In this document: positions 5,980 to 33,781 of the stretch, in pieces | How positions within the stretch are numbered: the first letter of the stretch is position 1 | Layout of the letters: each line of letters opens with the position of its first letter | From: Nitrospirota bacterium | GTDB lineage: Bacteria > Nitrospirota > Thermodesulfovibrionia > Thermodesulfovibrionales > Dissulfurispiraceae | Assembly: GCA_040754455.1 (NCBI GenBank) | Contig: JBFMCP010000032.1 | Coordinates: 1-38,814, forward strand | Length of the DNA: 38,814 nucleotides | Direction of reading: 5' to 3' | Position numbers and translations under genes: made by a program | Notes under the pieces: generated by a model | Databases searched by the model: none | What the model was told of the DNA's origin: nothing | What the model saw: only the letters and a program-made list of their open reading frames with translations

Positions 5980-7116
5980 ATGCTGAGCACCAATGTCCTC
6001 ATTATAGGCGGCGGGCCTGCCGGAGCTACCGCCGCACGGTTTCTTGCTGAAAACGGCATCGAAACCATTCTTCTGGAAAGAGACCTGTCGTATAAGAAGC
6101 CCTGCGGTGGCGGCATTCCCTCCTCTGCATTCGACGAGCTGGATATCCCCCGCAGCATCATCAAAAAAGAGATCCGGAAGATCAGAATTATCTCTCCCGG
6201 CGGAGATGATTTCGAGATCGCATTGAAAGGCGGCTGCATTGCTATCACGGACAGGGGAGACCTCGACTCTGCTCTCAGGGCAATGGCCCACGGCAGAGGG
6301 GCCGAACTGATCGAGGGGACCTTCGTCAGGTTTACCGCAACGGGGAGGAAAGTCATCTCTCTCATAAGGAACAGAGTAACAAACGAAGAGACGACGATAC
6401 AGTCCGATTACGTTATTGCCGCTGATGGTATCACCTCACGGGCGGGCTCCCAGCTCAAGGCGCCGTCACCCCATCATATCTTTACAATAAGCGCACATAT
6501 ACCACCCGCCGGTTTCGACTGCTGCGAATTCTGGTTCGGCTCAGGTCACGCCTCCCGCTTTTATTCCTGGGTCTTTCCCTCCTCGGAGTTCGCTTCGATA
6601 GGAACGGGCAGTAGCCGTTCCCGTGAGCTTACCCGGCTGCTGGATCGCTTCATCAGGAGGCGGTTTAATAGCTCTCTGAGGAATTTTGCTGCAGATACTC
6701 GTATGGAAAAACCGAGGGCCTTTAAAATACCAGTGTGGAATAAAACGCTTTTTAATAGAGATAATGTCCTCTTTGCCGGCGATACAGCGGGCACGGTCAT
6801 GCCCGTAACCTATGAAGGCATTTACTACGCCATGAAGTCAGGTGAATTCGCTGCGCAGGCGCTCATCGAAAAAAAACCTGAAAATTACAAACGGCTCTGG
6901 AACAGCAGATTTCGCACACGTTTTCTTCTCATGAGCAAAATCAACCACCTTCTGTTCAAGGACGATGAGACCATCGAGAAATGGGTGCAGCTCCACAAAA
7001 AGCCCGAGGTGCAGGAGATCGCGATGAAATTATGGCTCGAGAAGAAAAAGGGGAACGCGTACCTCCTTCCGTATGTAAATGTCTTCAAGCATATTTTGAA
7101 ATTCAAGTTGACCTGA
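5980..7116 (+). CDS. Geranylgeranyl reductase family FAD oxidoreductase (ChlP/BchP-like)
   Basis: GGGPAG FAD motif, KPCGGGIP, IAADG, FYSWVFP, EGIYYAMKSG. Confidence 0.88.
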   Translation: MLSTNVLIIGGGPAGATAARFLAENGIETILLERDLSYKKPCGGGIPSSAFDELDIPRSIIKKEIRKIRIISPGGDDFEIALKGGCIAITDRGDLDSALRAMAHGRGAELIEGTFVRFTATGRKVISLIRNRVTNEETTIQSDYVIAADGITSRAGSQLKAPSPHHIFTISAHIPPAGFDCCEFWFGSGHASRFYSWVFPSSEFASIGTGSSRSRELTRLLDRFIRRRFNSSLRNFAADTRMEKPRAFKIPVWNKTLFNRDNVLFAGDTAGTVMPVTYEGIYYAMKSGEFAAQALIEKKPENYKRLWNSRFRTRFLLMSKINHLLFKDDETIEKWVQLHKKPEVQEIAMKLWLEKKKGNAYLLPYVNVFKHILKFKLT

Positions 7117-7892
7117 TGGCGAAAAAACATCTCGGACAAAATTTCCTCTTTGACCCCTCGATCCTGACAAGAATCGTAGAAGCAGCAGGCATCAGTGCGG
7201 AGGATACGGTGGTTGAAATCGGTCCCGGCCACGGCAGTCTGACCAAGCTGCTGGCCCTTGCAGCTCGCAAGGTGATCGCCATAGAGCTCGATCCCGAGCT
7301 CTATCAGAAGCTGAGCGAAGACCCCCTCCTCCCCAACAATGTTACACTCGTCTTCAATGATGCCCTCAAATATCGCTATGAGGAGCTGGAATCGTTCAAG
7401 GTCGTCGCCAACATTCCTTACTATATAACCACTCCCCTCATCTTCAGGCTCCTCGATGCAAAAAAGCACATCACCTCCATGACGTTTACCATACAACGGG
7501 AAGTAGCCGAGCGTATCGTTGCCTCTCCGGGCACAAAAGATTACGGAGCGCTCTCCATAGGCGTACAGTTTTATGCGACTCCCCGTATTGAATTTATCGT
7601 TCCCCGCGGCGCCTTCAGACCGATTCCCAAAGTCGATTCCGCAGTGGTCCATATACAGATCCTCGATAAGCCGAGGGTCGAGGTAAGAGATGAGAAGCTC
7701 TTCTTCAAAGTTGTAAAGACCGCCTTTGCACAGCGAAGGAAGACCCTATCTAATGCATTGAAGCCGCTCTCGAAGGACATACGGGAAATGCTCGCTGAGG
7801 CAGGGATAGATCCCATCAGGAGGGCTGAAACGCTGAGCATCGAGGAGTTTGCGAAGCTCGCAGATCATCTCTCAAAGAGACTGTCACAATAG
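7116..7892 (+). CDS. rsmA: 16S rRNA m6,2A1518/1519 dimethyltransferase
   Basis: KKHLGQNFL, VVEIGPGHG, VVANIPYYIT, PKVDSAV, FAQRRKTL. The start ATG at 7116 overlaps the upstream TGA. Confidence 0.97.
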   Translation: MAKKHLGQNFLFDPSILTRIVEAAGISAEDTVVEIGPGHGSLTKLLALAARKVIAIELDPELYQKLSEDPLLPNNVTLVFNDALKYRYEELESFKVVANIPYYITTPLIFRLLDAKKHITSMTFTIQREVAERIVASPGTKDYGALSIGVQFYATPRIEFIVPRGAFRPIPKVDSAVVHIQILDKPRVEVRDEKLFFKVVKTAFAQRRKTLSNALKPLSKDIREMLAEAGIDPIRRAETLSIEEFAKLADHLSKRLSQ

Positions 7893-7980: not shown

Positions 7981-9186
7981 CTAACGCTCTAATGTCACCC
8001 GCTTCGTCACCTTGTGGATCGGCACCTTATTTTCAGGCACCTGGAGCTCATAGTTAAGGTCGACGGTGACATCGACGGTCGTGACGCCCTCGGGAAGCTT
8101 GATCTGGAAGGTCTCGTCCTTCGATGCGTACGGTTGAAGCGCTGTGTCCCTTACATACGATGCCTTGTTCTGGGCGCCGTAGACCATCTTCGAATCCAGG
8201 CAGGTCGTTGCCTGGGTATGATAATGCCGCTCATCCTTAAAAATTTCTTTACCGTCCGGCGTCTTTGCGGTCACTTCCATGACCACTCTGTTGTGGGACG
8301 GTCAACCGTCGGGGATTCTGTGTCCGCCGGTATGGCTGATCTTCGTATTCACCACCACCATCGGGTGAAGGTCTTTCGCCTTTCTCAGCCAGGAATAGCC
8401 CAGCGTCTGCACGTCGAGAGTCACTGCTTTCTTGAGCAGCTCAGAGGAGTGTGCTTTATCATCCCAGTTCGGGGCGATGAGGTGGTCGGCCTTGCCTTTG
8501 ACCTTGGGCATATGGCATTCCTGGCACGACTGGAACCCTCCGTGGGAGAGATAATTGTGCTGGTAGCTCCCGTAGAGCGTCGCGCACTGCACCGGGTTCT
8601 CAAATTCGAAATTGGGCCCCGTTCCATGGCACTGGCCGCAGAAGATGGACTGGTCCATCACCGTACTCTTCTTCACTTTTGTAAAGACTTTATCCGGATG
8701 CGAGGGAATATCCTTCGTACTGTAGATCACATCCTTTTCGGGCTTGCCGAGCTGCATCCGGTGGATAATCGCCTTCTCGTTGTGGCAGACGAGACAGGTA
8801 ATCTGAAGTTTGCCGACCTTCCCCTTATCCCCGGCCAGCAACGCCTCGGTCAACTCGACGGCAAAAGAATCCTCGGCAGAAGTTAATGCCTGCGGAAGAT
8901 GGCACTTGAAGCAAGGGAAGTTCTTCATTGTCGCCTGCTTCGGGTCCTTCGGAGCAAAGGGGCTGCCCTTCACCACAGGAACAAGCATCAGGCCGCCAGC
9001 GACCCCCATGAGCGGGCGGGCGTGGTGCGACTTCTCCCATTGAGCATAGATTTCCGCATGGCAGGCCTTGCACCGAGACGAATCGTACATCTTCGCCAGT
9101 TCATCGATCGACTTCGCCTTCTCCGCGTTCACCGCCAAAGGCAAAGCGATGAGAAGGACAGCAAGAATCACAACAACTGCTCTCAT
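7981..9186 (-). CDS. Periplasmic pentaheme c-type cytochrome selenoprotein (ExtKL/MccSep-like), 401 aa with Sec at codon 295
   Basis: Signal peptide and five CxxCH motifs (CKACH, CFKCH, CLVCH, CGQCH, CQECH). ORF 8302-9186 ends HRIPDG-TGA and continues in frame (PSHNR) into ORF 7981-8286. A SECIS-like hairpin directly follows the TGA. Confidence 0.88.
8267..8286 (-). promoter_or_regulatory. Bacterial SECIS-like hairpin
   Basis: mRNA GUGGUCAU-GGAA-GUGACCGC forms an 8-bp stem (two G-U pairs) with a G-initiated loop that begins after 23 nt downstream of the UGA at 8304-8302. Confidence 0.78.
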
Positions 9187-9266
9187 ACCTCCTCCTTTCG
9201 ATATACCTTGTTTCTGACAACTTCCCCGGTCCGAATGTCTGAAGGAACTACTTAGCTTGTAAAAGA

Positions 9267-9295
9267 ATTATCCCACTCTTTGGACCGACTTTCAA
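9267..9295 (-). promoter_or_regulatory. Putative sigma70 promoter of the cytochrome gene
   Basis: TTGAAA (9295-9290), 17 nt ending in TGG, GATAAT (9272-9267). A strong GGAGGAGG RBS precedes the ATG at 9186. Confidence 0.5.
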
Positions 9296-9385: not shown

Positions 9386-10078
9386 TTAACCTTGCTGCAG
9401 ACTTTTGAGCTGACCGCTGCTCATGCTCATCCGGCGTCCGGCCTCCGCAGCGAGCTCGGTATTGTGGGTAACCATGATAAAGGTAGTTCCCCTTTCATGA
9501 TTCATTTGTTTGAAAAACCGGATCATTTCCGCTTCGGTTACTTCATCCAGGTCGCCCGTGGGCTCATCGGCAAGGATAATCGCCGGATCGTTCATGAAAG
9601 CGCGGGCAATGGCCACCCGTCGCTGCTGCCCCCCGGAGAGCTGCGAGGGATAGGCATCGATTCTGTCGCCCAAACCGACCATGTTGAGCAACTCACTTGC
9701 CTTCATGTCACGGTCCTTTGCCGAGCTGTTTTCCTTCGCCGTAAACAATCCGGGCAGCAGAAGGTTCTCCTTTGCCGTAAGCATGGGCAGCAGGCTGGCA
9801 AACTGGAACATGAACCCCACCCGCTCGCAACGGTATGCAGCAAGTGCGTTACTGTCGAGAGTGTAAACATCGGTGTCCTCGAAGAGTATTCTGCCCGAGG
9901 TAGGTTTCACTATGCCCCCGATAAGGGAGAGCAGGGTGGTCTTTCCCGACCCTGAATGGCCGATTATGGAGACGAATTCGCCCTTGTTGACTTCGAGCGA
10001 CACGGCATCAACGGCGGTGACTACCGCATCCCCGATGACGTACTGTTTCGTTACCTTTTCCAGAAGCACCTGGGGCAT
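9386..10078 (-). CDS. ABC transporter ATP-binding protein, LolD/MacB type
   Basis: [31 protein letters not shown]. Confidence 0.95.
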
Positions 10079-10079
10079 A

Positions 10080-11276
10080 CTACTCTCCTTTTATCGCCGC
10101 CAGCGGCTCCATCCGCTTGATGCGCTGGAGCGGCGAGAGGGCGCCGACGAGGCAGATCCCTGTGCCTATCACAAAACCTGCAAGGGCAACCATGGCGCGC
10201 TCCGTAAGACCCAGGTCCGACGACACACTCTTCAAGATAGTGAAGCTCTTTGCGAGCACCAGCGAGAGTGCCGTGCCCAGGGCGATTCCCAGTATACTGC
10301 CTGCGGCCCCTACCAGCACCACCTCAAAAATAAAGAGCCGCGCAACATGGGCCTCCTTTGCACCGATGGCCCTCATGATCCCCACTTCCCTCGCTCTCTC
10401 GTTTGCGATGGCGGAGAATATGGCCCAGACGAGAAAAGCGGCAAGCACCGAGGCAAGGCCTACCGTGAGGGCGAAGATCTGATTAATATCCCTGAGCGCG
10501 CTAACGAGATTCTTCCCGATGTCCTTTCTCGCGATGGTGTCCACCTCTATTATGGAATTCTCGATCTCGCCGGCTATCCTGTAGGGATCATAGCCTCTCT
10601 TCACCTTTGCGAACATGACCGAAATCTGCCCGGGCTTTATGCCCGATCGGCCTTTCCTTATGATGTCGTCGATATTGCCTTCATCGATAAAGAGGGCAGT
10701 ATCAAGGCCCGTTCCCGTTTTATCGAGCACGCCGACCATCTTGAACACGGTCCCGAACAGTACGCTGTCGACGTCCACAAGCCCCACGCTGATATTGAAG
10801 GCCGACTCGTTACCGACAATCGCCTCCCCTCTTTGGAGCTTTCTTCCCAGCTTCTTGATGAGCCAGGGCTTAATGACAAAGTCGGTATCCTGGTTGAAGG
10901 CGACAACAACCGTTTCGGGGACATCGCAGCAGAGTCCTGCCATGGTGATAAGATAGGTCTGATATGTCACCGCATCAACACCTTCGACCTTCTTTACCCG
11001 TTCCACAAGACCTTTATCCATGTAGAACGATTTCGTCCTGCTCTCGAGCAGCACATCCTCTGCAGCCCCTCTGGCACCCGAGGGCACGATGAGAATATCG
11101 GCACCCAGCCGGTCGGAAGTAAGCTTGATGCTCGCATCGACACGCCTGACAAAGGAAAGGGCAAAGACGAGGGAGGAAACAAACAGACCTATGGCGATTA
11201 TCAGGATCCCGGTCCTGAGCGGCTTTCTCCTGAGGTTCCTGAGCGCAAGCGAAAAGAGGGTGAATTCTTTCGACAT
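10080..11276 (-). CDS. ABC transporter permease, FtsX/MacB/LolC type, with a periplasmic Cys-Cys motif
   Basis: LALRNLRRKPLRT start, one N-terminal TM, a large periplasmic domain containing GLCCD, ERAREVGIMRAIGA, three C-terminal TMs. Confidence 0.92.
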   Translation of the reverse strand: MSKEFTLFSLALRNLRRKPLRTGILIIAIGLFVSSLVFALSFVRRVDASIKLTSDRLGADILIVPSGARGAAEDVLLESRTKSFYMDKGLVERVKKVEGVDAVTYQTYLITMAGLCCDVPETVVVAFNQDTDFVIKPWLIKKLGRKLQRGEAIVGNESAFNISVGLVDVDSVLFGTVFKMVGVLDKTGTGLDTALFIDEGNIDDIIRKGRSGIKPGQISVMFAKVKRGYDPYRIAGEIENSIIEVDTIARKDIGKNLVSALRDINQIFALTVGLASVLAAFLVWAIFSAIANERAREVGIMRAIGAKEAHVARLFIFEVVLVGAAGSILGIALGTALSLVLAKSFTILKSVSSDLGLTERAMVALAGFVIGTGICLVGALSPLQRIKRMEPLAAIKGE

Positions 11277-11352
11277 GATCGGATTATTATAACGGATTTA
11301 GACTCTTCTTTCTATGCGGCTTTCGCCGCATAGAAAGAAGAGTGAATGGAAT

Positions 11353-12495
11353 CTATTTCTTGTACACGCCGTCAAGGCCGCAGAGGATGGAGCTCTTGTC
11401 GCCGAGCCCCATGCCTTTATGACAGGCGAAACAGACCGAGGAAGTCTTGCCGACAACCTTTTTTGCCTCGACATCGTAAAGCTGGAGGGTGCCGTCGGTG
11501 ATCTTCTTGCCGGGAATCGGCTTCCCTTCACCGTCGCAGCCGTCGACATCGGACGTCCTCAGTGTCATAACGACATATTTGCTGTCAGGGGTAGGCATGG
11601 CGTCGTGGTTTTCTCCCCCGATGTTCGTCTTCTCATCTACCATCTTTAGGGTCTTGCCGTCGAGCACCCAGAGCCTGTCGCCGGCGGACTGGAAGATCAG
11701 TTTGTCGTCATGACTGAAGAACTCTCTGAAGGTGATGGTTTTACCCGGAACGCCGGTATGCGTGGCCCTTGCGAGCTCCTTGAACTTGCCTTTCTCAAGG
11801 GCCGCCATGTCGACCAGAATGAAATCCACCTTCCCGTTCGCCTTTCCATCTTCGCCCTTCATGACAACGGTGAGGAGGAATTTTTTCATATCGTTGGAAT
11901 TGATGCCGTGCAGGAATACATAGGTCCCGGACTTATACCCCAGATCACTGATAAACACCCTGTGCTTGTGCGTCAGGGTCGCCTTATCGAACACATCGAC
12001 ATATGCCTCATTGCCCATAAACACCGGCATGAAGTATTTCTTGGTCTGTCCTGATGCACAGTAGAGCGGCATCTTCTTCTCACCGCCAGTAGACCTCGGG
12101 TCAGGGGCCATCGCGACATCCTTGATCACATTGCCGGTCCTCAGGTCGGTCTTGCCGACATGCTGTTTGCCGTTCGGATCGATCTTGTACGTCGACCAGA
12201 ACATGATATTGGGATCATTAACATCGATCCGCGCATCATGGGTAGGATGTGTATTCTTATCGCCGATCACCACCCTGTCGAGACCCGCGACTTTTATCGG
12301 ATTGTCGGCATTGTTCGGATCGATGGTTATGTCCGCCTTTGCAAAGTGGCCGCCCATCCCTGCAATATACAGCGTGCCTGAATACGTTTTTTTGCCTGCC
12401 GCTGCAACAGGTGTCTTGGCGTCAACAACACTGAACACGAGATAGCCGACAAGCGCAACAACCATTACCCCCACTACGATAAAGCTTTTTCTCAT
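11353..12495 (-). CDS. Secreted or membrane-anchored His-rich putative beta-propeller protein with one C-terminal CxxCH
   Basis: Hydrophobic N-terminus; propeller-like repeats (VDVFDKATL, FSHDDKLIF, LWVLDGKTLKMV, PTPDSKYVV, LYDVEAKKVV); CFACH near the C-terminus. The fold is inferred. Confidence 0.65.
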   Translation of the reverse strand: MRKSFIVVGVMVVALVGYLVFSVVDAKTPVAAAGKKTYSGTLYIAGMGGHFAKADITIDPNNADNPIKVAGLDRVVIGDKNTHPTHDARIDVNDPNIMFWSTYKIDPNGKQHVGKTDLRTGNVIKDVAMAPDPRSTGGEKKMPLYCASGQTKKYFMPVFMGNEAYVDVFDKATLTHKHRVFISDLGYKSGTYVFLHGINSNDMKKFLLTVVMKGEDGKANGKVDFILVDMAALEKGKFKELARATHTGVPGKTITFREFFSHDDKLIFQSAGDRLWVLDGKTLKMVDEKTNIGGENHDAMPTPDSKYVVMTLRTSDVDGCDGEGKPIPGKKITDGTLQLYDVEAKKVVGKTSSVCFACHKGMGLGDKSSILCGLDGVYKK

Positions 12496-12654
12496 ATCTC
12501 CTCCTCCCCTGGTTTTAGATGCTTAAATTATGGACAAATCTCTGCACGTGCATTATTGGTAGGTGATTTCTTCAGGACCTCCTTTCACTGTAAATAACTT
12601 ACCTTTTTTAACATACGTCTAAACTCAAGTCAACTTGAAATTTTAAATGTAGTC

Positions 12655-13149
12655 CTAATAGTGATACGGCTTGTCAGGGGCCTTTGTAACCTGCACCCGT
12701 ACCAGCCTCTCGCCTGACCGCTCAAAAATCAGGATAAGGGGTAGTTCAGCACCCTTTTTAATATCCTTGGGAAGCTTGAAAATCATTATATGCATCCCCC
12801 CGGGCTTGAGTTCCACCGTACTGCCCGAAGGTATAGGTAGCCGCTCCTTTTTAATCATTTTCCCGTCCCTGGTGTCGTGCAGCTCAGCAAAGGCGCCCTG
12901 AATGCCTGCCCGCACTCCGACGAGAGCGTCACTGCCATTTCCCGTATTATGGACGCTCATAAATACCGATCCGACGCCGAGCATGGCCGCCGATATCCAG
13001 GCCTCCTGTCCGTCAATAGTGATCTGAGGCTCTCCCCCTGCTCCGCACGCGTTCAGGAAGGTCACCGCCAGAAGAGCGACCAACGCTCCAAGAACGCGAA
13101 TCCATGGTGCACGGGATTTTTTTTGTGGGACAGGCAACAGAAAGCGCAT
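12655..13149 (-). CDS. Copper chaperone PCu(A)C family lipoprotein
   Basis: LNAC lipobox; H-x6-M-x21-H-x-M Cu motif (ELHDTRDGKM...LKPGGMHIM). Confidence 0.92.
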   Translation of the reverse strand: MRFLLPVPQKKSRAPWIRVLGALVALLAVTFLNACGAGGEPQITIDGQEAWISAAMLGVGSVFMSVHNTGNGSDALVGVRAGIQGAFAELHDTRDGKMIKKERLPIPSGSTVELKPGGMHIMIFKLPKDIKKGAELPLILIFERSGERLVRVQVTKAPDKPYHY

Positions 13150-13164
13150 ATATTCCTTAGTCTG

Positions 13165-13626
13165 CTATTTCCGTTTTGGCACAGAGAGCTTGCTATAGGG
13201 AACAACATTTCCCTTACCCGCCTCTGCGACAAAACGCTCGGCGCTCTGCTTGTCCTTGAATGCGATAATGTCGTAGCCCATCGGTGTCTTGACCCCTGAT
13301 TCGACCACAAAAGAGGCGTTTTCGATAGCGACAGACTCTGCGGTGTTGTAATCGAACACCTCCGCATTACTTTCGAAACTCATCAGCTTTGATGCGCACA
13401 GTTCCTCTCTCCAGATGAGGGCGCAGCCGATATCGTCAAATGCGGCCTTTTCGTTGCTTTTTGCATCGACGACCGAAAACCGCTTATTGCTTTCTTCGAT
13501 GTTCATGTTGCATACGCTGCAGACTGCTGGCGGTGCAGCTTCAGCCCTTGCCGGATAGAGCATAATGGGACTACATGATAGGACCGCCGCTAAAAGCAGC
13601 CCGGTGAAAAGATAATATCTTTTCAT
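13165..13626 (-). CDS. NosL-family copper chaperone
   Basis: Signal peptide, CSVCNM, FDDIGC, TPMGYDIIAF...AERF. Confidence 0.88.
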   Translation of the reverse strand: MKRYYLFTGLLLAAVLSCSPIMLYPARAEAAPPAVCSVCNMNIEESNKRFSVVDAKSNEKAAFDDIGCALIWREELCASKLMSFESNAEVFDYNTAESVAIENASFVVESGVKTPMGYDIIAFKDKQSAERFVAEAGKGNVVPYSKLSVPKRK

Positions 13627-14329: not shown

Positions 14330-14758
14330 ATGTTTATGCAAGAAATGCTCGAAATTCTCAAGCTCCTCTCCGATGAATCGCGGCTCAGGATCCTCATGCT
14401 TCTGGAGAAAAAGGAACTCTGTGTCTGCCAGATCATGGGTGTCCTCAATATTTCACAGCCGCTGGTTTCCCGGAACCTCTCCCTCCTGGCAAAAGCCGGC
14501 TTTCTCAAAGACCGGAGGGAAGGCAAGTTGATGTTCTACAGCGTCAAAAAAAAGCTTCCCCTGAAGCACAATCTCGTCCTGTCGGTCTTGAAAGAGACTT
14601 TAAAGGATGATAAAGTTGCATTGAAAGATGCGGCTTCGCTGAAGGACTGCGAGGAGTTCCAGAAAATTACCGGCAAGTGCGGGATGGAGACGTTCCGCGC
14701 ATACATAGAGCATAAAGAGAAAATGAAAAGGAGACAGAAAAGTGTTGTTGGAATTTAA
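14330..14758 (+). CDS. ArsR/SmtB-family transcriptional regulator
   Basis: LSDESRLRIL, ELCVC, SQPLVSRNL, RREGK..FY, plus two further C-terminal Cys. The true start may be 14336. Confidence 0.93.
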   Translation: MFMQEMLEILKLLSDESRLRILMLLEKKELCVCQIMGVLNISQPLVSRNLSLLAKAGFLKDRREGKLMFYSVKKKLPLKHNLVLSVLKETLKDDKVALKDAASLKDCEEFQKITGKCGMETFRAYIEHKEKMKRRQKSVVGI

Positions 14759-15410
14759 AAAGAAAAGGAGCAGGCTCCAGGCCTATACATGGTATGGACT
14801 CCCCCTGGTCATCATCGGCGGATGGATATACCCGAAGCTCGGATACTTTCTCCTTGCCTGCATGTTCGGCGCCATCGGCATTGCCTTTTACAAAGGCAGG
14901 GCATGGTGTGACTGGATGTGCCCGCGCGGAAGTTTCTACGACCTCTTCTTGCAGAAGATCAGTGCACAGAAAACCATACCACCGCTCTTCAGAAAAAAGA
15001 GCTTCCGCATCTTCGTGCTCGCGACAATGTTGAGCGTTCTCGGCTCCCAGATCTATTTTGCCTGGCCTGATATAGACGGTATAGGCATGGCGATGGTCAA
15101 GCTGCTCACCGTTACGACCATCATAGGCATCATCCTCGGCGCACTCTACCAGCAGCGCGTTTGGTGCCATATCTGTCCCATGGGCACGCTGGGCAACTAT
15201 ATCGCCGACGGCAAAAAGCCGCTCATGATCGACAACTCCTGCATCAGCTGCAAGACATGCTCAAAAGCCTGCCCCATGCAGCTGGCACCCTATCGGTTCA
15301 AAGAGAAGGGCATGATGGGCGACAATGACTGCATCAAGTGCTCCTCCTGTGTCGCCGTCTGCCCGAAAAAGGCGCTTGTTTTCGACGGGTCGATAAAGAA
15401 GGCCGCATAA
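14742..15410 (+). CDS. Membrane 4Fe-4S-binding protein (NapH/MauN-like polyferredoxin)
   Basis: TM helices, CDWMCP and CHICP motifs, two CxxCxxCxxxCP motifs; GTG start after AAGGAG. Confidence 0.88.
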   Translation: MLLEFKKKRSRLQAYTWYGLPLVIIGGWIYPKLGYFLLACMFGAIGIAFYKGRAWCDWMCPRGSFYDLFLQKISAQKTIPPLFRKKSFRIFVLATMLSVLGSQIYFAWPDIDGIGMAMVKLLTVTTIIGIILGALYQQRVWCHICPMGTLGNYIADGKKPLMIDNSCISCKTCSKACPMQLAPYRFKEKGMMGDNDCIKCSSCVAVCPKKALVFDGSIKKAA

Positions 15411-15434: not shown

Positions 15435-16772
15435 ATGATGAAATACGGAATAGTTGCCCTCATGGTGGTCGCCCTGTTTTCAGGCACCGGGTCCTGCGCT
15501 GAAAACAAAGTTACGCTTGCCGAAGCGATCAAGATCGCCCTTGAACGCAACCATGAAATAAAGGCACATCAGCATGCACTCTCGGCACAGTACCAGGACA
15601 TCGGTATCGCCCGGAGCTTTCTGCTTCCGAAAGTAATCTTTGAAGAGCGGTTTCTGCGCACGAATAACCCCACCTATTCTTTTATGGCAAAGCTGAACCA
15701 GGAGCGATTTACGACCGACGATTTTGCCATTGGCTCTCTGAATAACCCGAAGCCTCTGAGCGATTTTCAGACATCCCTCTCCTTTGAGCAACTGCTTTTT
15801 GTCCCCAAGGCAAACGTCGGCCTCGGAATGGCAAAGCTCGAATACGCTGCGCAGGATAATGATTACCGGAGGAAAAGAGAAGAGATTGCTTTTAAAGTAT
15901 CACGGACGTTCCTCATGGTAACTACCGCACAGGAATATGTGAAAGCCGCCCGTCAAACCGTTGAGGATACCAAAGAGCACTTGAGGATAGCGGAATTGAG
16001 GTACGATTCAGGCCTCGGTCTCTATTCCGATGTCTTACGGGCATCGACAGCAGTCACTGATGCAGAGCAGCGACTGGTTAGCGCTCAAAAAAATCTGGAC
16101 GTGGCAAAAAGGGCATTGGGCCTGCTGCTCGGCATGACCGAAGCAGTTGAAGCAGCTGAAGAGACGGTCATGGTACCCCTCATGGACCTCTCCTACTACA
16201 ATAATGCCTCACTCTCGAGAAACGATGTCCGGGCACTCACGGCCCGGTTTGAGAATACAAAGAAGAGCGTGAAACTCGCTGAGGCGGGATACCTTCCCAC
16301 AGTAGGCATCGGCGGCACCTACCAGCTCAACGATCACCGGAAGCCGATCGGATCAGAGGGCGACAGCTGGCAGCTTATGGCATTTCTGAGATGGGAACTC
16401 TTCGACGGAACGAAACGGGAACATGAACGGGCCAAGGCGAAATCACGGGTCGCCGAGACCCAGGAATATCTGGAAGGGCTCAGGGATGCAGTTTCATTCC
16501 AGGTCTATGAATCCTATCTCGGCGTGAACGAGGCAAAAAAAAACGCCGAACTCTCTCAATCAGCGCTCAAAACCGCTGAAGAGGGGAGGCGGCTGGTGCA
16601 GGTGCGTTACGAGAATTCTTTATCTCCACTGATCGACCTTCTGGATGCGCAGACAAGCCTCGACCACGCACGGGCCAGCGCCGTTGCACGGGAGAATGAG
16701 TATACTACCGCTGTTCTCAATCTGAGCTACCAAAGCGGAACGATTCTCAAAGATCTGAAGATAGAGGAATGA
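15435..16772 (+). CDS. TolC-family outer membrane efflux protein
   Basis: TLAEAIKIALERN, duplicated OEP repeats (RYDSGL, RYENSL, DLLDAQ). Confidence 0.92.
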   Translation: MMKYGIVALMVVALFSGTGSCAENKVTLAEAIKIALERNHEIKAHQHALSAQYQDIGIARSFLLPKVIFEERFLRTNNPTYSFMAKLNQERFTTDDFAIGSLNNPKPLSDFQTSLSFEQLLFVPKANVGLGMAKLEYAAQDNDYRRKREEIAFKVSRTFLMVTTAQEYVKAARQTVEDTKEHLRIAELRYDSGLGLYSDVLRASTAVTDAEQRLVSAQKNLDVAKRALGLLLGMTEAVEAAEETVMVPLMDLSYYNNASLSRNDVRALTARFENTKKSVKLAEAGYLPTVGIGGTYQLNDHRKPIGSEGDSWQLMAFLRWELFDGTKREHERAKAKSRVAETQEYLEGLRDAVSFQVYESYLGVNEAKKNAELSQSALKTAEEGRRLVQVRYENSLSPLIDLLDAQTSLDHARASAVARENEYTTAVLNLSYQSGTILKDLKIEE

Positions 16773-16783
16773 TGGAGGAAAGA

Positions 16784-18007
16784 ATGAAAAGGAGTCAGAA
16801 TTCAGAATTCAGAATTCAGAATTCAAAAGCCGTCCCCGACGAAAAACGTCAGAGAGCGCCGCTTCCCTTAAAAGCTCATTCCAGGAATTCAAAAAGTCTT
16901 CTCTTTTTTGTTTTATTCTGGCTTCTGACTTCTGTGATGTCCGGTTGTTCGGACAAGATCAAGCCCGGTAGTGCAGAAGTAAAGCGGCCGGTCGTCACCG
17001 GCATTACCGTCACCGAAGTCAACCCGGCACTGATCGACGATTATTACGAAACATCGGGAACAATCAAGGCAAGAACCATAAGCATGGTCGCCAGCAGGGT
17101 AATGGGGACCGTCACCACGATCAAGGTGCGGGAAGGCGACAGGGTCCGTGCAGGGCAGGTGCTGATGACCATCGACGACAGGGACAGCGCGCAGCGGGTC
17201 CGTGCTGCTGAAAAGGCCCTCGAGGCGGCGGAGCAGCAGCGGTCGCTTACCGATATCACCTACCAGCGATATAAAAAGCTGTATGACGGCAGGGCAGTAT
17301 CCCGGCAGGAGCTCGATCAGATCGAAACCGGGAAAAAGGTCGCCGAGAGCGAGTACGAACGGGCAAAAGCGATGCTCGCCGAAATGCGGATCAACCACGG
17401 CTTTTCGCGGATCACTGCCCCGACATCGGGTGTGGTGACCGAGAAAAGAATAGAAACCGGCAGCATGGCGGTGCCGGGGACGCCGCTCCTCGTTGTCGAA
17501 GACACTTCCTCATATCAACTTGAGGCACACCTCGACGAGAGCATCCTGAACAGGATCAGCATGGGAATGCCCGTTACGGTCATCATCGAATCGATAGGAA
17601 AACAGATCGAAGGCAGGGTTGTGGAAATCGTCCCCTCTGTTGATCCTATGTCACGGACCTTTCTGGTGAAAATAAGTGTTGCGGGACCGCTCCTGAAAAC
17701 AGGACTCTATGCAAAAGCACGGGTACCAGTGGGAAAAAAAGAGGCGATAGTCGTGCCTGAGCGCGCCGTGGTCGAAAAAGGGCAGCTCACCGGCGTCTAT
17801 GTCGTCGATTCGCAGGGAATCATTTCCTACCGGCTGGTGCGATTAGGCAGGAATTATAACGGCGTTACTGAGATCGTATCCGGATTGAATCCCCGTGACA
17901 GCGTCATCATCGATGGTACGAACAGGGCAATCGACGGCGGCATCGCACGCAATGTTCAGCGCATAGCCTCCGGGAACACTGCGCCTTCCGCTGCACCGCA
18001 GAGGTAA
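16784..18007 (+). CDS. RND efflux periplasmic adaptor (MFP) lipoprotein
   Basis: MSGC lipobox, V.EGD.V.AGQ.L lipoyl half-motifs, ITAPTSGVV, VDPMSRTF. ATG at 16784 follows GGAGG (alternative start 16769). Confidence 0.92.
   Translation: MKRSQNSEFRIQNSKAVPDEKRQRAPLPLKAHSRNSKSLLFFVLFWLLTSVMSGCSDKIKPGSAEVKRPVVTGITVTEVNPALIDDYYETSGTIKARTISMVASRVMGTVTTIKVREGDRVRAGQVLMTIDDRDSAQRVRAAEKALEAAEQQRSLTDITYQRYKKLYDGRAVSRQELDQIETGKKVAESEYERAKAMLAEMRINHGFSRITAPTSGVVTEKRIETGSMAVPGTPLLVVEDTSSYQLEAHLDESILNRISMGMPVTVIIESIGKQIEGRVVEIVPSVDPMSRTFLVKISVAGPLLKTGLYAKARVPVGKKEAIVVPERAVVEKGQLTGVYVVDSQGIISYRLVRLGRNYNGVTEIVSGLNPRDSVIIDGTNRAIDGGIARNVQRIASGNTAPSAAPQR
16795..16934. repeat. Heptamer tandem repeat (TCAGAAT x4) with an inverted degenerate counterpart, inside the 5' end of the MFP gene
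   Basis: TCAGAAT x4 at 16795-16822; ATTCTG GCTTCTG ACTTCTG at 16915-16934. Confidence 0.8.
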
Positions 18008-18013
18008 TCATCG

Positions 18014-21000
18014 ATGAGCGTTGTCGGCATCGCAGGCAAAATAGCAAAGACGTTCATCAAATCCAAGCTCACCCCGCTGATCGTCATCGCATCGCTCATT
18101 CTCGGCGTATTTGCCGTCATCGTTACCCCCCGTGAAGAGGAGCCGCAGATCGTCGTGCCGATGATCGATGTGATGGTCGCCTATCCCGGCGCCTCAGCAA
18201 AAGAGGTGGAGGAACGGGTCACGAAGCCGATGGAGAAGTTCCTCTGGGAGATCAAGGGCGTAGAGTATGTTTACACCATCTCCAAACCCGGCATGAGCAT
18301 GGCGATCGTCAGGTTCTATGTCGGCGAGGACATGGAGGACAGCATCGTCAAGCTCTACAACAAACTGATGTCCCATTACGATAGGATACCTCCCGGCGTG
18401 TCCCAGCCGCTGGTGCGCCCGAAGTCGATCGATGATGTTCCCATACTGACGTTTACTCTCTGGAGTCAGCGCTACAACGGGTATGAGCTGAGGAGAATTG
18501 CGACCGAGGTCTGTGATGAATTGAAAAAAGACCAGGACATCTCGGAGTTTACGGTAATGGGGGGCCAGAAACGCCAGGTCCGCATCGATATCGACCCCGT
18601 GCGCCTCAGGGCTTATTCTCTGGCTCCCCTGCAGATCGCAGGAATGCTGCAAAAGGCCAATTTCATGCTGCCGTCAGGCGCCTTCTTCAACAAGAACAAG
18701 GAATTTCTCGTCGAGACCGGCGCATTCCTCAAAAACGCCCAGGAAGTAGGAAATGTGGTTGTCGGCATCTCAAACAGCAGGCCTGTCTACCTGAGGGATG
18801 TGGCAAAGATCAGCGACGGTCCCGAAGAGCCGTCGAATTATGTGTTCATGGGCTTTGGCCCTGCCTCACTAAAAAGCAGCGAGTATGCCTCTCCGCAAAA
18901 CAGCACCGGACAGTATGAGGCGGTTACCATCGCCATCGCAAAGAAGAAGGGGACGAATGCCACCCACATCGCCGAGAGAACGCTGAAAAAGATCGAAGCC
19001 ATCAAAGGGACTATTATCCCCTCAGGAGTCGAGATAACCACAACGCGGAACTACGGCGATACGGCAAAGGAGAAGTCCGATGAGCTCCTCGAGCACATGC
19101 TCATCGCCGCCATATCAGTAACTATTCTTATCGCCCTTGCCCTCGGCTGGCGGGAATCCATTGTCGTTGCCGTCGCAGTGCCCGTCACCCTTGCGCTTAC
19201 TATCCTTGTAAATTACCTGTACGGCTACACGCTGAACAGGGTGACGCTCTTCGCGTTGATCTTTTCGATCGGCATTCTTGTCGATGACGCCATTGTGGTG
19301 GTCGAGAATATCCACCGCCACTTCAAGATGGGCAGCATCGATACCGAAACAGCGGTGAAGGCGGTCGATGAAGTGGGCAATCCGACCATATTGGCGACCT
19401 TCACGGTCATCGCCGCGCTGCTGCCCATGGCATTTGTCTCAGGACTTATGGGTCCTTACATGCGTCCCATCCCTGTCGGCGCCTCTGCGGCAATGCTGCT
19501 TTCACTGCTCATCGCCTTCATCATCAGTCCGTGGTTGAGCTACATCGTCTTAAAGGGAACAAAGAAGGAGGAGGGCGACAACAACGCCAAGGATGAAAGC
19601 AAAATCATCGGTGCGCTGAACCACCTCTATGAAAAAAATCTCAGGGGTCTCCTTGAGAGCAAGAGGAAGCGGCTCATGGGGCTCCTGCTCGTTCTTCTGC
19701 TCCTGGGAGGAGCAATGGCCCTGGTGCCGTTGAAGCTCGTTACCGTAAAGATGCTCCCTTTTGATAACAAAAGCGAGCTGCAGGTCATTATCGATATGCC
19801 CGAGGGGACAACGCTCGAGGAGACAGCGGCATTGACCCGCCAGGTCGGCGACTATCTCACAACCGTTCCTGAGGTTACCAACTATCAATCGTACGTCGGA
19901 ACTGCAGCTCCCTTTAACTTCAACGGCCTCGTCCGCCACTATTTCATGCGGTCGGGGAGCAATTCGGCGGATATCCAGGTCAATTTCGTCGCGAAAGATA
20001 AACGGAAGGCCCAGAGCCACGATATCGCCAAGCGACTGAGATCCGAGATCAAGAAGATCGGCGACCGTTACCATGCACGCATCAAGGTGGTCGAAATTCC
20101 TCCGGGTCCTCCGGTGCTGAGCACACTCGTTGCCGAGGTCTACGGGCCGGACTTTACGAGACAGATCGAGATAGCGCAGCAGATCAAGGAGGTATTCGAA
20201 AAAACCGGCGGTGTTGTTGACGTCGACTGGTACGTCGAAGACGATCAGAAAAAATTCTGGTTCGATGTCGACAAGGAAAAAGCCGCCTATAACGGGATAA
20301 GTACCGATACCGTTGCGCAGACCCTCAGGACAGCCATCGGCGGCAGTAGTGCCGGACTGGCCCATGTGGAAAAAGACAAGGAGCCGGTGGAGCTGTTTAT
20401 GCGGATGCCGTTCTCCGAGCGAACGAGTGTTGCGGACCTGCAAGAGGTAACGATTCCCTCGAGCTCAGGCGCTCTTGTCCCCCTCTCCGAGCTGGTCACC
20501 ATGAAGGAGCGCATCGAGGACAAGACCATCTACCGGAAGAATCTCAAACGGGTGGTCTATGTGACCGGCGATGTGGCGGGCACTGAGGAGAGCCCGGTCT
20601 ATGCCATTCTGAAAATGAAGGAGATGATCAAGAACCTCAGGCTGCCCGAGGGATACGAGCTAAAGCAATACTCAGCGGTCCAGCCGTGGCTCGAAGATAA
20701 ATATTCGATGAAGTGGGATGGCGAGTGGCATATCACTTATGAGGTCTTCAGGGATCTCGGTATCGCCTTCGCAGCGGTGCTGATATTGATTTACATAATG
20801 GTCGTCGGCTGGTTCAGGTCCTTCATCATCCCGATCGTTATTATGGCGCCGATTCCCCTGTCGCTCGTCGGCATCCTGCCGGGGCATGCAATCATGGGAG
20901 CCTTCTTTACCGCAACCTCGATGATCGGATTCATTGCGGGAGCAGGCATTGTCGTGAGGAATTCCATTATTCTCGTTGATTTCATAGAGCTCAAGCTCTC

Positions 21001-21298
21001 CGAAGGCATGGAGCTGAAGGAGGCGGTGGTGCAGGCAGGTATCATCCGGTTCAGGCCCATGTTGCTGACTGCGGCGGCAGTCGTGGTAGGTTCATCGGTC
21101 ATACTGTTCGATCCCATATTCCAGGGTATGGCGATCTCCCTGATGGCCGGAGAGGTCGCATCAACGCTGCTCTCGCGGACCATGGTGCCCGTTCTCTATT
21201 ACATATACAAAGATTGGGAAATAAACAAGAAACGGAAAGAAGAGGAACGCGCTCAAACGGCTGCTTACTGCGGCATCAGCCGATCAGAGCAGCCCTGA
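18014..21298 (+). CDS. RND efflux permease (AcrB/CusA superfamily)
   Basis: 1094 aa; [34 protein letters not shown]. Confidence 0.96.
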
Positions 21299-31446: not shown

Positions 31447-31854
31447 TCAGCTCACACCCTTTGAGGGACGGGCAAGCTCGGGCTCTACATAAGCGTTCAT
31501 GACTTCGAGCCTGCTCACGATTCCCGCGAGTTTTTTCCCGTCACGCACAACGGGAATGACCGTGAAGTGGTTGTGGAGCATTGTCTCAATGATTTCCCTT
31601 TCAGCGGTATCAAGATCGGCAGCGACAACCGACTTCGACATTATCTCTTCAGCAGTAACCGTATCAATATCCCTGCCGTCCCATAATGCCTCGAGAATAT
31701 CGAATTCAGTGACAATGCCGATGATCTCGGATTGATCGTTGACGACCGGGAGTCCCGGATACCCTTCCTCCATAAGCTTTAAAATGATCTCCCTCGCCGT
31801 TGCCTGAGCCTTTATGGCGCTCGCCTTCCGCATCAGATGCCGTGCCTGTGTCAT
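31447..31854 (-). CDS. CBS-pair domain protein
   Basis: GLPVVN...GIVTEFDI and IPVV...GIVSRLEV. Confidence 0.92.
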   Translation of the reverse strand: MTQARHLMRKASAIKAQATAREIILKLMEEGYPGLPVVNDQSEIIGIVTEFDILEALWDGRDIDTVTAEEIMSKSVVAADLDTAEREIIETMLHNHFTVIPVVRDGKKLAGIVSRLEVMNAYVEPELARPSKGVS

Positions 31855-31880
31855 CTCCGCCCTCCTTGGTAGTGCAGTCG

Positions 31881-32366
31881 TTAATATTCCTCAAGATGGT
31901 ACCACTCCGCATTTTCGAGCCAGTTGAACGGCCGTGCGACAAAATCGATGATATTTTCGAGAATGAAGTAGTGCTTGTTTTCTTCCTCTGCAACCTTCAG
32001 GAAGATCTCTTTCTGGTGGGGCTCTCCTACCTTGCCGGCCTGCTCGCGATAATAGTCGCGCGTTTTTACCTCGATCTCCTGTGCCCTGCTGTAGAGGTCT
32101 ATCTCGGAGGCGTCGGCAGTGATGACGTCGCCCTCTTCGCTCATCCGGACAAATATATTCTTCACATCCTTGAGGATCGTTACATCAGGGACCTCGACCG
32201 GCTCATCGCTCCTCATCTTCCGAAATATGTTGTAATGCCTCACTTCGGCGTCGGCGAGCATGGTCAATATATTTTTCAGGCCGGGATTCACAACCTTTCC
32301 CGCCAATTCACGATAATAGTGCTCGCCGTCCTTCTCCAACTGCATCGCGTATTCATAGATATCCAT
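31881..32366 (-). CDS. Rubrerythrin-type ferritin-like diiron protein (no rubredoxin domain)
   Basis: AMQLEKDGEHYY...AEVRH and AQEIE...YY...EENKH repeats. Confidence 0.9.
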   Translation of the reverse strand: MDIYEYAMQLEKDGEHYYRELAGKVVNPGLKNILTMLADAEVRHYNIFRKMRSDEPVEVPDVTILKDVKNIFVRMSEEGDVITADASEIDLYSRAQEIEVKTRDYYREQAGKVGEPHQKEIFLKVAEEENKHYFILENIIDFVARPFNWLENAEWYHLEEY

Positions 32367-32557
32367 ATGGTCACCTCCGGGTATATTGAGGCTCCAAGGC
32401 GTGAATGCAAACTATTTTCTACTGGACCGGCTGCACAGTGCCCGCTCGGCCTCATGACAAATACAGTTTGTGCTCACACCCTAAAAAGATTATATCAGAC
32501 AATTGCTCAAGTGGCTTGCGTTAAAAGCAACGGGGGAATGGTGAGATGGCGTACCGG

Positions 32558-33781
32558 CTACGGCACTGTTCTGAAATTTTTCTCTCTCCGTATCAGATCG
32601 TTCGGCCTCACGCCGGGAGGGACATTCATGAAAATAATATCCTCGTTCCGTGCGGAAGTAATGCTCGCGCCGTCCGCATCGTGCATTGCTTCGACGGCAA
32701 AGCGCCGCTCCTCAAAGCCGGGAGAAAGGTACTCGACCTCATCACCGAGATCGAGCCTGTTCCTCAAGCCGATCTTTGCGCGGTCGCCGCTGACCTCGAG
32801 GACAACGCCGACCAACTCATGGCTCATACGGTAACTCTCCCCGTCGAAGTTGTAGTCGCTGTCGGGCTGTCTGCCGAAGAACATGCCGGTCGTATACCCC
32901 CTGCTGCTGAACATGGAAAGCTCTTTCAGCCAGCGGGGATTCACCCTGTACGGCACACCTTCTTTCATCGCATCAATAGCCTCGCGGTAGGTCTTTACGA
33001 CTCCGGCGATGTAGTTGATGCCCTTCATCCTGCCCTCGATTTTGAAGCTGTCGATGCCTGCATCCGCAAGGAGAGGAAGATGTTCGATCATGCAGAGGTC
33101 CTTTGAGCTCATAACATAGGTCCCCCGGTCATCCTCGAATACCGGGAAATACTCTCCCTGCCGTTTCTCTTCCATAAGGGTATAATTCCACCGGCAGGAA
33201 TTGGTGCATTCTCCCCTGTTCGCACCACGCGACGCAAGAAAGCTGCTGATATAGCATCTTCCGGAATAGGAGATACAGAGAGAGCCGTGGACAAAAACCT
33301 CGAGTTCGATGCCGACGCTCTGCCGTATTTCCCTTATTTCATCGACCGACAGCTCCCGTGCAAGAATAAGCCTCTTTGCGCCCAGCTCCTCCCAGAAGCG
33401 TGCTGCCTCGCGATTGGTGATGTTTGCTTGTGTACTGATATGAATGTCGAGATCAGGGATGCGCTTTTTTATCAGGGAATACACCCCGGGATCGGAGAGG
33501 ATCACCGCATCCGGCCTGACCTCTTTGAGCACCTCGAGATGCTCCTCGATCTCAGGAATATCCCTGTTGTGCGGAAAGATGTTGACCGTCACATACACCT
33601 TTACACCCCGCCCCCGGGCATAATCGACCGCCCGTTGTAGCTCCCCGGGATAAAAGTTCCGCGCCTTGCCCCTCAGGCTGAAACGAGAATCGCCGAGATA
33701 CACTGCGTCAGCGCCGTAATGAATGGCGGTAACGAGCTTTTCAAAATCTCCCGCAGGAGCAAGCAGCTCAGGCTTCTTCAC
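32558..33781 (-). CDS. Peptidase U32 family protein (TrhP/YegQ-like tRNA hydroxylation protein)
   Basis: [53 protein letters not shown]. Confidence 0.92.

Follow-up and report, generated by a model that had tools for sequence, protein, structure and literature searches.

An in-frame UGA in a pentaheme cytochrome gene of a Nitrospirota bacterium: a very probable selenocysteine codon in an MccSep (ExtKL) orthologue split by gene callers

Does the TGA codon at positions 8304..8302 of contig JBFMCP010000032.1 terminate a cytochrome c gene, or does it specify a selenocysteine (Sec) within a longer one? The question concerns a stretch of 38,814 nucleotides (38.8 kb) from a Nitrospirota bacterium (assembly GCA_040754455.1), hereafter called the window, which is the whole stretch of DNA that was analyzed. 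Calling of open reading frames (ORFs) on its minus strand produces an upstream ORF of 294 amino acids (9186..8302 including the stop, coding part 9186..8305) and a downstream ORF of 101 amino acids (8286..7981, GTG start at 8286). The TGA closes the 294-codon ORF after ...GGHRIPDG; past it, the same frame continues with CCG TCC CAC AAC AGA GTG GTC ATG and remains open for 106 codons until the next stop, the TAG at 7983..7981. When the TGA is read as U, the read-through product has 401 residues with U at position 295. An earlier note on this DNA had taken the two ORFs as one 401-residue pentaheme selenoprotein, and the ORFs, junction, TGA and frame that it described are all present in the sequence as it gave them. 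The analysis presented here makes us confident that 9186..7981 on the minus strand is a single gene, orthologous to the gene for MccSep (ExtKL), a selenoenzyme of the periplasm that is a c-type cytochrome with five hemes.

The read-through protein belongs to a family for which a curated model exists, NCBIfam NF040886 or "multiheme c-type cytochrome (seleno)protein ExtKL", which it matches with 461.4 bits (cutoff 250, E 2.2e-138) in one stretch across the UGA, residues 18-399 being aligned to model positions 27-422 of 423; Pfam returns generic multiheme signals only. The best sequence matches in the PDB are the entries for MccSep of Geobacter sulfurreducens (9wt8, 9wt9 and 9wta-c; E 1.4e-69, residues 19-366). 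Position 295 aligns with X (Sec, U325) of the wild-type structure 9wt8 and with Ala of the U325A mutant 9wt9, so that the residue at the junction, which the earlier note had proposed to look up in homologues, corresponds to a selenocysteine confirmed by mass spectrometry (PMC13510729). Pairwise alignment to MccSep also places C201 on C239, K341 on K372 and H96 on H122, and these catalytic residues are present.

The Geobacter enzyme has been characterized. Each subunit of this periplasmic homotetramer contains five c-type hemes and a single Sec, the signal peptide is removed by cleavage, and the product is one Sec-containing polypeptide of 49 kDa; the Sec was demonstrated by measuring selenium and also by mass spectrometry, in a peptide where it has the same IPDG-U-P context (PMC13510729). 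Heme 2 is His/Cys-ligated, with H122 as the proximal and C239 as the distal ligand, and U325 lies beside this heme on a mobile D-G-U-P loop; the variants U325A, U325C and C239H lose activity, U325C most of it (PMC13510729). The enzyme reduces polysulfide and, less well, selenite, and S0 respiration is impaired in a deletion strain (PMC13510729), in agreement with what the earlier note said of a five-heme Geobacter selenoprotein linked to sulfur or chalcogen reduction. The same work describes 637 homologues, 394 of them recovered only through UGA read-through and most of them from Desulfobacterota and Nitrospirota (class Thermodesulfovibrionia); five CxxCH motifs are the family hallmark, Cys-type homologues occur in nature, and SECIS-like stem-loops (SECIS, selenocysteine insertion sequence) are predicted at most 30 nt from the UGA (PMC13510729, Sci Adv 2026). 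As early as 2018, gsu2937-2936 was put forward as a cytochrome with Sec in the extHIJKLMNOPQS cluster (PMC5877670), and ExtKL/NF040886 is listed among prokaryotic selenoproteins in a 2026 review.

The window protein resembles MccSep (ExtKL, GSU2937-2936 of G. sulfurreducens PCA) in having the five CxxCH motifs in the same order, the distal Cys of heme 2 (C239 = C201), the Sec of the D-G-U-P loop (U325 = U295), the lysine K372 (= K341) and a putative N-terminal signal peptide, and its gene is likewise split by an in-frame UGA that is followed by a stem-loop. Compared with the NF040886 members from Nitrospirota and Thermodesulfovibrionales, it matches over the full length and nothing of substance differs. 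Residue conservation was read from a full-length alignment of 73 rows (the window and 72 loci with a clean ATG start), in which histidines H55, H142, H210, H235 and H289 are invariant in addition to the residues so marked in table 1. The earlier note had drawn attention to five CxxCH motifs and to two non-heme cysteines, in QCATLY and TTCLD; all are present, and the first cysteine, C201, is conserved in every row and corresponds to the distal ligand of heme 2, whereas the second, C329, is Cys in only 46 of the 73 rows and falls outside the known active site. Position 63 is Ala in the window and Lys or Arg in many relatives. Residues 1-21, read by eye, combine a basic N-terminus, a hydrophobic core and the sequence VNA followed by EK, and are likely to form a Sec-type signal peptide.

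The codon itself is conserved throughout the family. A search of a clustered protein database gave 1067 matches, of which the best 120 were examined. These proteins have 284-346 amino acids and cover about 67-73% of the query, and 119 of the 120 end in ...P[D/N]G, at the codon before the UGA (the remaining one is cut earlier). Some of the entries are already named ExtKL, and the nearest relatives, with 79-81% identity, are proteins from Nitrospirota metagenome-assembled genomes (MAGs). When one genome per species was scanned, 152 relatives emerged, from which 80 loci were kept (47-81% identity; mostly MAGs labelled Nitrospirota, Thermodesulfovibrionales, Desulfobulbales, Desulfurivibrio or Desulfomonile). 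Since the nearest copy in a species-representative genome is 81% identical, the window gene is the orthologue of another species. For most of the 80 loci the tblastn match extends over query residues 1-401, which, together with the NF040886 alignment, shows that homologues run across the junction. The homologous codon is TGA in 80/80 loci within the invariant context G-H-R-x-P-D-G-*-P-S; no locus has a non-Cys sense codon at this place and none is organized as two independent genes. (Extra matches to this pattern in the loci L010 and L025 are unrelated sequences elsewhere in those loci.)

The frame beyond the TGA is open for 104-112 codons in 78 of the 80 loci, the two exceptions being L064, which runs off its contig end, and L077, which is disrupted upstream. 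In a comparison of 51 ungapped loci, each with exactly 106 post-TGA codons, against the window as reference, the differences at codon positions 1/2/3 amount to 1509/1002/3003, and the tails of the window and L008 differ by 56 synonymous and 12 non-synonymous codon changes. From this codon-position pattern and the changes in L008 it follows that the tail is translated in this frame, and it is under purifying selection. The two ORFs are parts of one gene. Of note, L077 (DOHC01000288.1) retains the TGA and a 106-codon tail with only 94 open codons before the TGA; either a frameshift or faulty assembly interrupts its N-terminal part. Several individual genomes or MAGs contain two MccSep paralogues on separate contigs, with the TGA in each (L011/L021, L049/L054, L004/L006, L060/L072 and L040/L053); the sequence around the UGA is identical in L011 and L021.

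An AlphaFold (AF2) model was built from an alignment of 14 rows and has a mean predicted local distance difference test (pLDDT) of 66.3 and a predicted template modeling score (pTM) of 0.61. Residues 1-254 are modeled as mainly helical and residues 255-398 as seven strands, which flank the UGA (255-285 before it, 300-398 after it) and for the most part have a mean pLDDT of about 74-93 in blocks of 10 residues. The predicted fold agrees, at moderate confidence, with the helical heme cap and immunoglobulin (Ig)-like beta-sandwich stem of the crystal structure. Foldseek was run against a PDB fold library that ends in April 2026, and MccSep entries were not returned; the top match is cytochrome c552 of Thermochromatium tepidum (5ze8; E 5.6e-11, TM-score by query [TMq] 0.47), and the C-terminal part matches Ig-like sandwiches such as ApaG with TM-scores by target of 0.53-0.59. 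Cytochrome c552 also gives a weak sequence match (E 2.1e-9); it is likewise pentaheme and of similar size, but with 18% identity it is a distant relative only.

These results bear upon a rival interpretation of the codon, namely that the TGA is a true stop, which either separates a truncated 294-aa pentaheme cytochrome from an independent 101-aa protein initiated at GTG 8286 or marks a pseudogene produced by nonsense mutation. Standard ORF calling yields exactly these two ORFs, the public databases hold the 294-aa form, and 6 of the 29 window genes end normally in TGA, among them those for TolC, the RND permease and RNase HI. Moreover, bacterial ribosomes partly terminate at Sec codons, and a truncated by-product is therefore possible. 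A nonsense mutation, however, is not expected to be kept at the same codon in 80/80 loci from several phyla, nor does a true stop fit with a post-TGA part that is under purifying selection in this very frame. Searched by itself, the 101-aa piece has no match in Pfam, and inspection of the sequence by eye found no purine-rich or Shine-Dalgarno-like site 5' of GTG 8286, consistent with the earlier note's remark that the second ORF lacks a ribosome-binding site. Furthermore, the NF040886 model and the MccSep crystal structure both run through the junction, the predicted strands of the beta-sandwich lie on both of its sides and the Geobacter product is the single polypeptide mentioned above (PMC13510729). 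We consequently consider a true stop highly improbable. A sequencing or assembly error in the window has a practically negligible probability, given that the identical codon is found in all 80 independently assembled relatives; the database protein P0002, identical to the 294-aa ORF, is also cut at this codon, even if it possibly derives from the same genome or sample. A global reassignment of TGA is ruled out, because TGA ends 6 of 29 window genes and the genetic code has thus not been reassigned as a whole.

A second line of evidence for Sec decoding comes from the RNA. The 8-bp hairpin with a GGAA loop that the earlier note had placed 3' of the UGA is found 15 nt past this codon, and a lower (outer) helix of 7 bp starts at the last base of the UGA (table 1). 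A gap-free alignment of 69 nt around the UGA was examined, with 81 sequences, 75 of them distinct. Each of these 75 forms all six core pairs of the upper stem, and the first base of the loop (column 33), located 23 nt from the UGA, is G in 81/81 sequences, as the earlier note would have it for a bacterial hairpin within the coding sequence. A Met-to-Leu codon change disrupts the window's seventh stem pair in roughly half of the relatives, leaving a 6-bp stem with an 8-nt loop. The distance from UGA to loop that bSECISearch accepts is reportedly about 16-37 nt.

The paired columns also change in concert. A G-C to A-U swap at columns 28 and 41 is present in five rows (L007, L023, L024, L028 and L029), a second such swap affects another upper pair in one row (L060), and in the lower helix two pairs at wobble positions covary, in 11 and 9 rows. 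Paired cells amount to 83.9%, versus 25-49% after sliding the partners by 1-3 columns, and the observed covariation score was reached by none of 500 column shuffles. Since related sequences can beat column shuffles through kinship alone, without any structure, the weight of this analysis lies in the slid-partner control and in the changes on both sides of a pair. The swap in five rows replaces Val by Ile on one arm and Thr by Ile on the other; the RNA pair has therefore been kept at the cost of two amino acid changes, which illustrates clearly how RNA structure constrains the protein sequence within a coding region.

Several results have to be set against the interpretation of the gene as a Sec-decoding MccSep orthologue. 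The tRNA scan of the window detected no tRNA, and hence no tRNA-Sec, and among the 30 window ORFs scanned none matched selA, selB or selD. Taken as a single sequence, the hairpin folds only modestly better than chance (91-nt segment, minimum free energy -25.2 kcal/mol, z = -2.08, with 7 of 200 shuffles folding equally well); what makes it convincing is the comparative data, with TGA in 80/80 loci and the core stem in 75/75 sequences. Rfam gave no match over the whole window at gathering score and, in a permissive search of 8150..8400, two matches only, to unrelated viral elements with E about 5. In the AlphaFold model pLDDT falls below 50 at residues 182-222, 287-297 and 324-348, the expected active-site loops, and because the model is poor there the proximity of U295 to C201 is taken from homology only. 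The anion-binding R83 of the Geobacter enzyme corresponds to a 2-residue gap in the pairwise alignment and lacks a clear counterpart. Finally, of the genes that accompany extKL in Geobacter, as the 2018 study describes them (rhodanese ExtH, porin ExtI, multiheme ExtM/N/S and Rieske/cytochrome b ExtO/P; PMC5877670), none lies beside the window gene, which unlike its Geobacter counterpart is a stand-alone gene outside any extHIJKLMNOPQS-type cluster, with rsmA on one side and an ABC/copper-chaperone cluster on the other; for this reason what is known or proposed for Geobacter about electron donor and substrate entry is not transferable. The window protein is also some 49 residues shorter than MccSep (401 vs 450 in the deposited chain), with several deletions in the heme domain, and has Ala in place of the non-conserved C240. 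The differences in length, R83 and gene context are minor against the conserved catalytic core, leaving some room for another donor, substrate or role.

The lack of Sec machinery in the window is, together with the existence of Cys-type MccSep homologues (PMC13510729), also the argument in favor of a third interpretation of the codon, in which the UGA would be read as something other than Sec, either as Cys or Trp by near-cognate suppression or as Cys after loss of the Sec pathway. The absence of sel genes from 38.8 kb is nevertheless uninformative about the rest of the genome, and lineages losing Sec swap the TGA for TGC or TGT, whereas here both the TGA and a covarying hairpin have been kept. 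Considering also that the U325C variant of Geobacter lost most of its activity (PMC13510729), we assign very little credence to a non-Sec reading.

With selenocysteine retained as the most probable meaning of the UGA at 8304..8302, the gene product can be envisaged as follows. The UGA would be decoded as Sec during translation, the in-frame hairpin 15 nt downstream recruiting SelB with its Sec-tRNA(Sec), a step taken from the established mechanism of Sec insertion in bacteria. The product would start with a signal peptide that is cleaved off, followed by an N-terminal helical domain to which five hemes are covalently attached and by a C-terminal beta-sandwich presenting U295 on the invariant D-G-U-P loop. 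By homology to the G. sulfurreducens enzyme, U295 would be located beside heme 2, the distal ligand of which would be C201; the selenolate would attack polysulfide or, less efficiently, selenite, the bound chalcogen would be handed over to C201 and electrons from the heme chain would cleave the Se-S/S-S adduct, with release of sulfide. TsdA and SoxAX, His/Cys-ligated heme enzymes from thiosulfate metabolism in which a Cys-ligated catalytic c-heme acts in S-S chemistry, are considered mechanistically alike (PMC13510729); these proteins have no Sec, and no sequence relationship with them was detected in this analysis.

By analogy, the role of the protein in the Nitrospirota bacterium would be in sulfur/polysulfide respiration or a related sulfur conversion. 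A role differing from that of the Geobacter enzyme, with another donor and with sulfur disproportionation or another chalcogen substrate in place of respiratory polysulfide reduction, appears unlikely, although some room is left for it because the gene stands alone, without a porin, rhodanese or bc-type module, because R83 has no clear equivalent, and because a subset of relatives lies directly downstream of a copper-chaperone/beta-propeller/ABC-exporter cluster. Whatever its exact substrate, the gene for the MccSep orthologue is one more unexceptional representative of a known family whose genes are split by gene callers, not a discovery, since the family, its Sec site, SECIS-like hairpin and spread in Nitrospirota have already been published (PMC13510729). 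Indeed, with structure and mechanism also published in 2026 and a curated annotation model in existence, the locus opens no new question. Its value lies mainly in annotation: gene callers report two products, a "cytochrome c" of 294 aa and a hypothetical protein of 101 aa, thereby hiding a selenoenzyme that by homology marks the organism as a likely reducer of sulfur or polysulfide. Once recognized, it supplies one more predicted trait of an uncultured bacterium of Nitrospirota type, whose genome should accordingly carry the Sec machinery.

Table 1. Coordinates of mccSep/extKL, its sequence elements and the adjacent gene cluster in the window
Feature	Position	Strand	Remarks
mccSep/extKL complete coding sequence	7981..9186	minus	401 codons including UGA-295; TAG stop 7983..7981
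Promoter-like site	9267..9295	minus	TTGAAA, 17 nt spacer, GATAAT, with TG before it; 10/12 matches
Shine-Dalgarno-like GGAGGAGG	9188..9195	minus	directly 5' of ATG 9186; read from the sequence by eye
Putative Sec-type signal peptide, residues 1-21	9124..9186	minus	by-eye reading of the translation
Heme motif 1 CKACH, residues 39-43	9058..9072	minus	invariant, 73/73 rows
Heme motif 2 CFKCH, residues 92-96	8899..8913	minus	H96 = Geobacter H122; invariant, 73/73 rows
Heme motif 3 CLVCH, residues 131-135	8782..8796	minus	invariant, 73/73 rows
Heme motif 4 CGQCH, residues 183-187	8626..8640	minus	invariant, 73/73 rows
C201 (QCATLY)	8584..8586	minus	aligned to Geobacter C239, heme 2 distal ligand; invariant, 73/73 rows
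Heme motif 5 CQECH, residues 221-225	8512..8526	minus	invariant, 73/73 rows
U295, UGA codon	8302..8304	minus	invariant H-R-x-P-D-G-U-P-S context; aligned to U325; invariant, 73/73 rows
SECIS-like element	8251..8304	minus	upper hairpin 8286..8267; lower helix 8302..8296 with 8257..8251
106 post-UGA codons	7984..8301	minus	remainder of the C-terminal beta-sandwich domain, which begins 5' of the UGA
K341	8164..8166	minus	aligned to Geobacter K372, catalytic-support lysine; invariant, 73/73 rows
LolD/MacB-like ABC ATPase	9386-10078	minus	cluster upstream of mccSep
FtsX-type permease	10080-11276	minus	cluster upstream of mccSep
380-aa protein	11353-12495	minus	no Pfam/NCBIfam match; resembles YncE-type 7-bladed beta-propellers in ESM Atlas (a lead only)
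PCuAC copper chaperone	12655-13149	minus	cluster upstream of mccSep
NosL-like protein	13165-13626	minus	cluster 9386-13626 upstream of mccSep

The window looks like an ordinary chromosomal stretch, with genes for EF-G, S7, S12, BirA, CoaX, RsmA, PFOR, an RND efflux system and signalling proteins, and its G+C content is 49-56% throughout. The mccSep gene is convergent with rsmA and is separated by a gap of 199 nt from the co-directional cluster upstream (9386-13626), which may be a copper-related export or assembly system. The promoter-like site of table 1 lies about 80 nt 5' of the start, within this gap behind the ABC ATPase gene; one such site was counted, against a mean of 0.9 in shuffles, which makes it weak evidence.

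Among the 80 loci, rsmA adjoins mccSep in 15, and components of the ABC/propeller/PCuAC cluster do so in only 4-8, being absent in close relatives such as L008; LigD-PE occupies the place of the cluster in L008, L014 and L019. A conserved functional partnership with the ABC/copper-chaperone cluster was rejected on account of this rare adjacency, and the neighbourhood represents lineage synteny. The closest synteny is found in the Nitrospirota MAGs L001 and L003, which makes a Nitrospirota bacterium the most likely source; Thermodesulfovibrionales is the label of several among the closest relatives. As to rsmA, its ORF at 6981-7892 (plus strand) is listed 46 codons too early and overlaps a gene of the geranylgeranyl-reductase family; the RsmA family model matches from residue 47, pointing to ATG 7119, right after the TGA stop at 7114-7116, as the likely start.

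Altogether 23 in-frame TGAs in the window have long open frames on both sides, and only that at 8304..8302 is situated in a gene with family support; the others, all but one judged by position only, are taken as off-frame or antisense shadows. The exception, TGA 31893..31891 upstream of a CBS gene, was checked and dismissed, the frame upstream of it having no Pfam match and a rubrerythrin-like gene in another frame explaining the region. That gene (161 aa, 31881-32366, minus strand; PF02915, E 6e-16) lies between CBS-domain and U32-family genes and is overlapped by a plus-strand ORF of 344 aa (31800-32834) without family match, probably a shadow ORF. Within the mccSep locus, an antisense ORF of 290 aa (8014..8886, plus strand), also without family match, was likewise taken as a shadow ORF. 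Elsewhere in the window, at 14330-15410 on the plus strand, a gene for an ArsR/SmtB-type regulator is found directly upstream of one for a NapH/MauN-like membrane ferredoxin, after which follows a TolC/MFP/RND efflux operon at 15435-21298.

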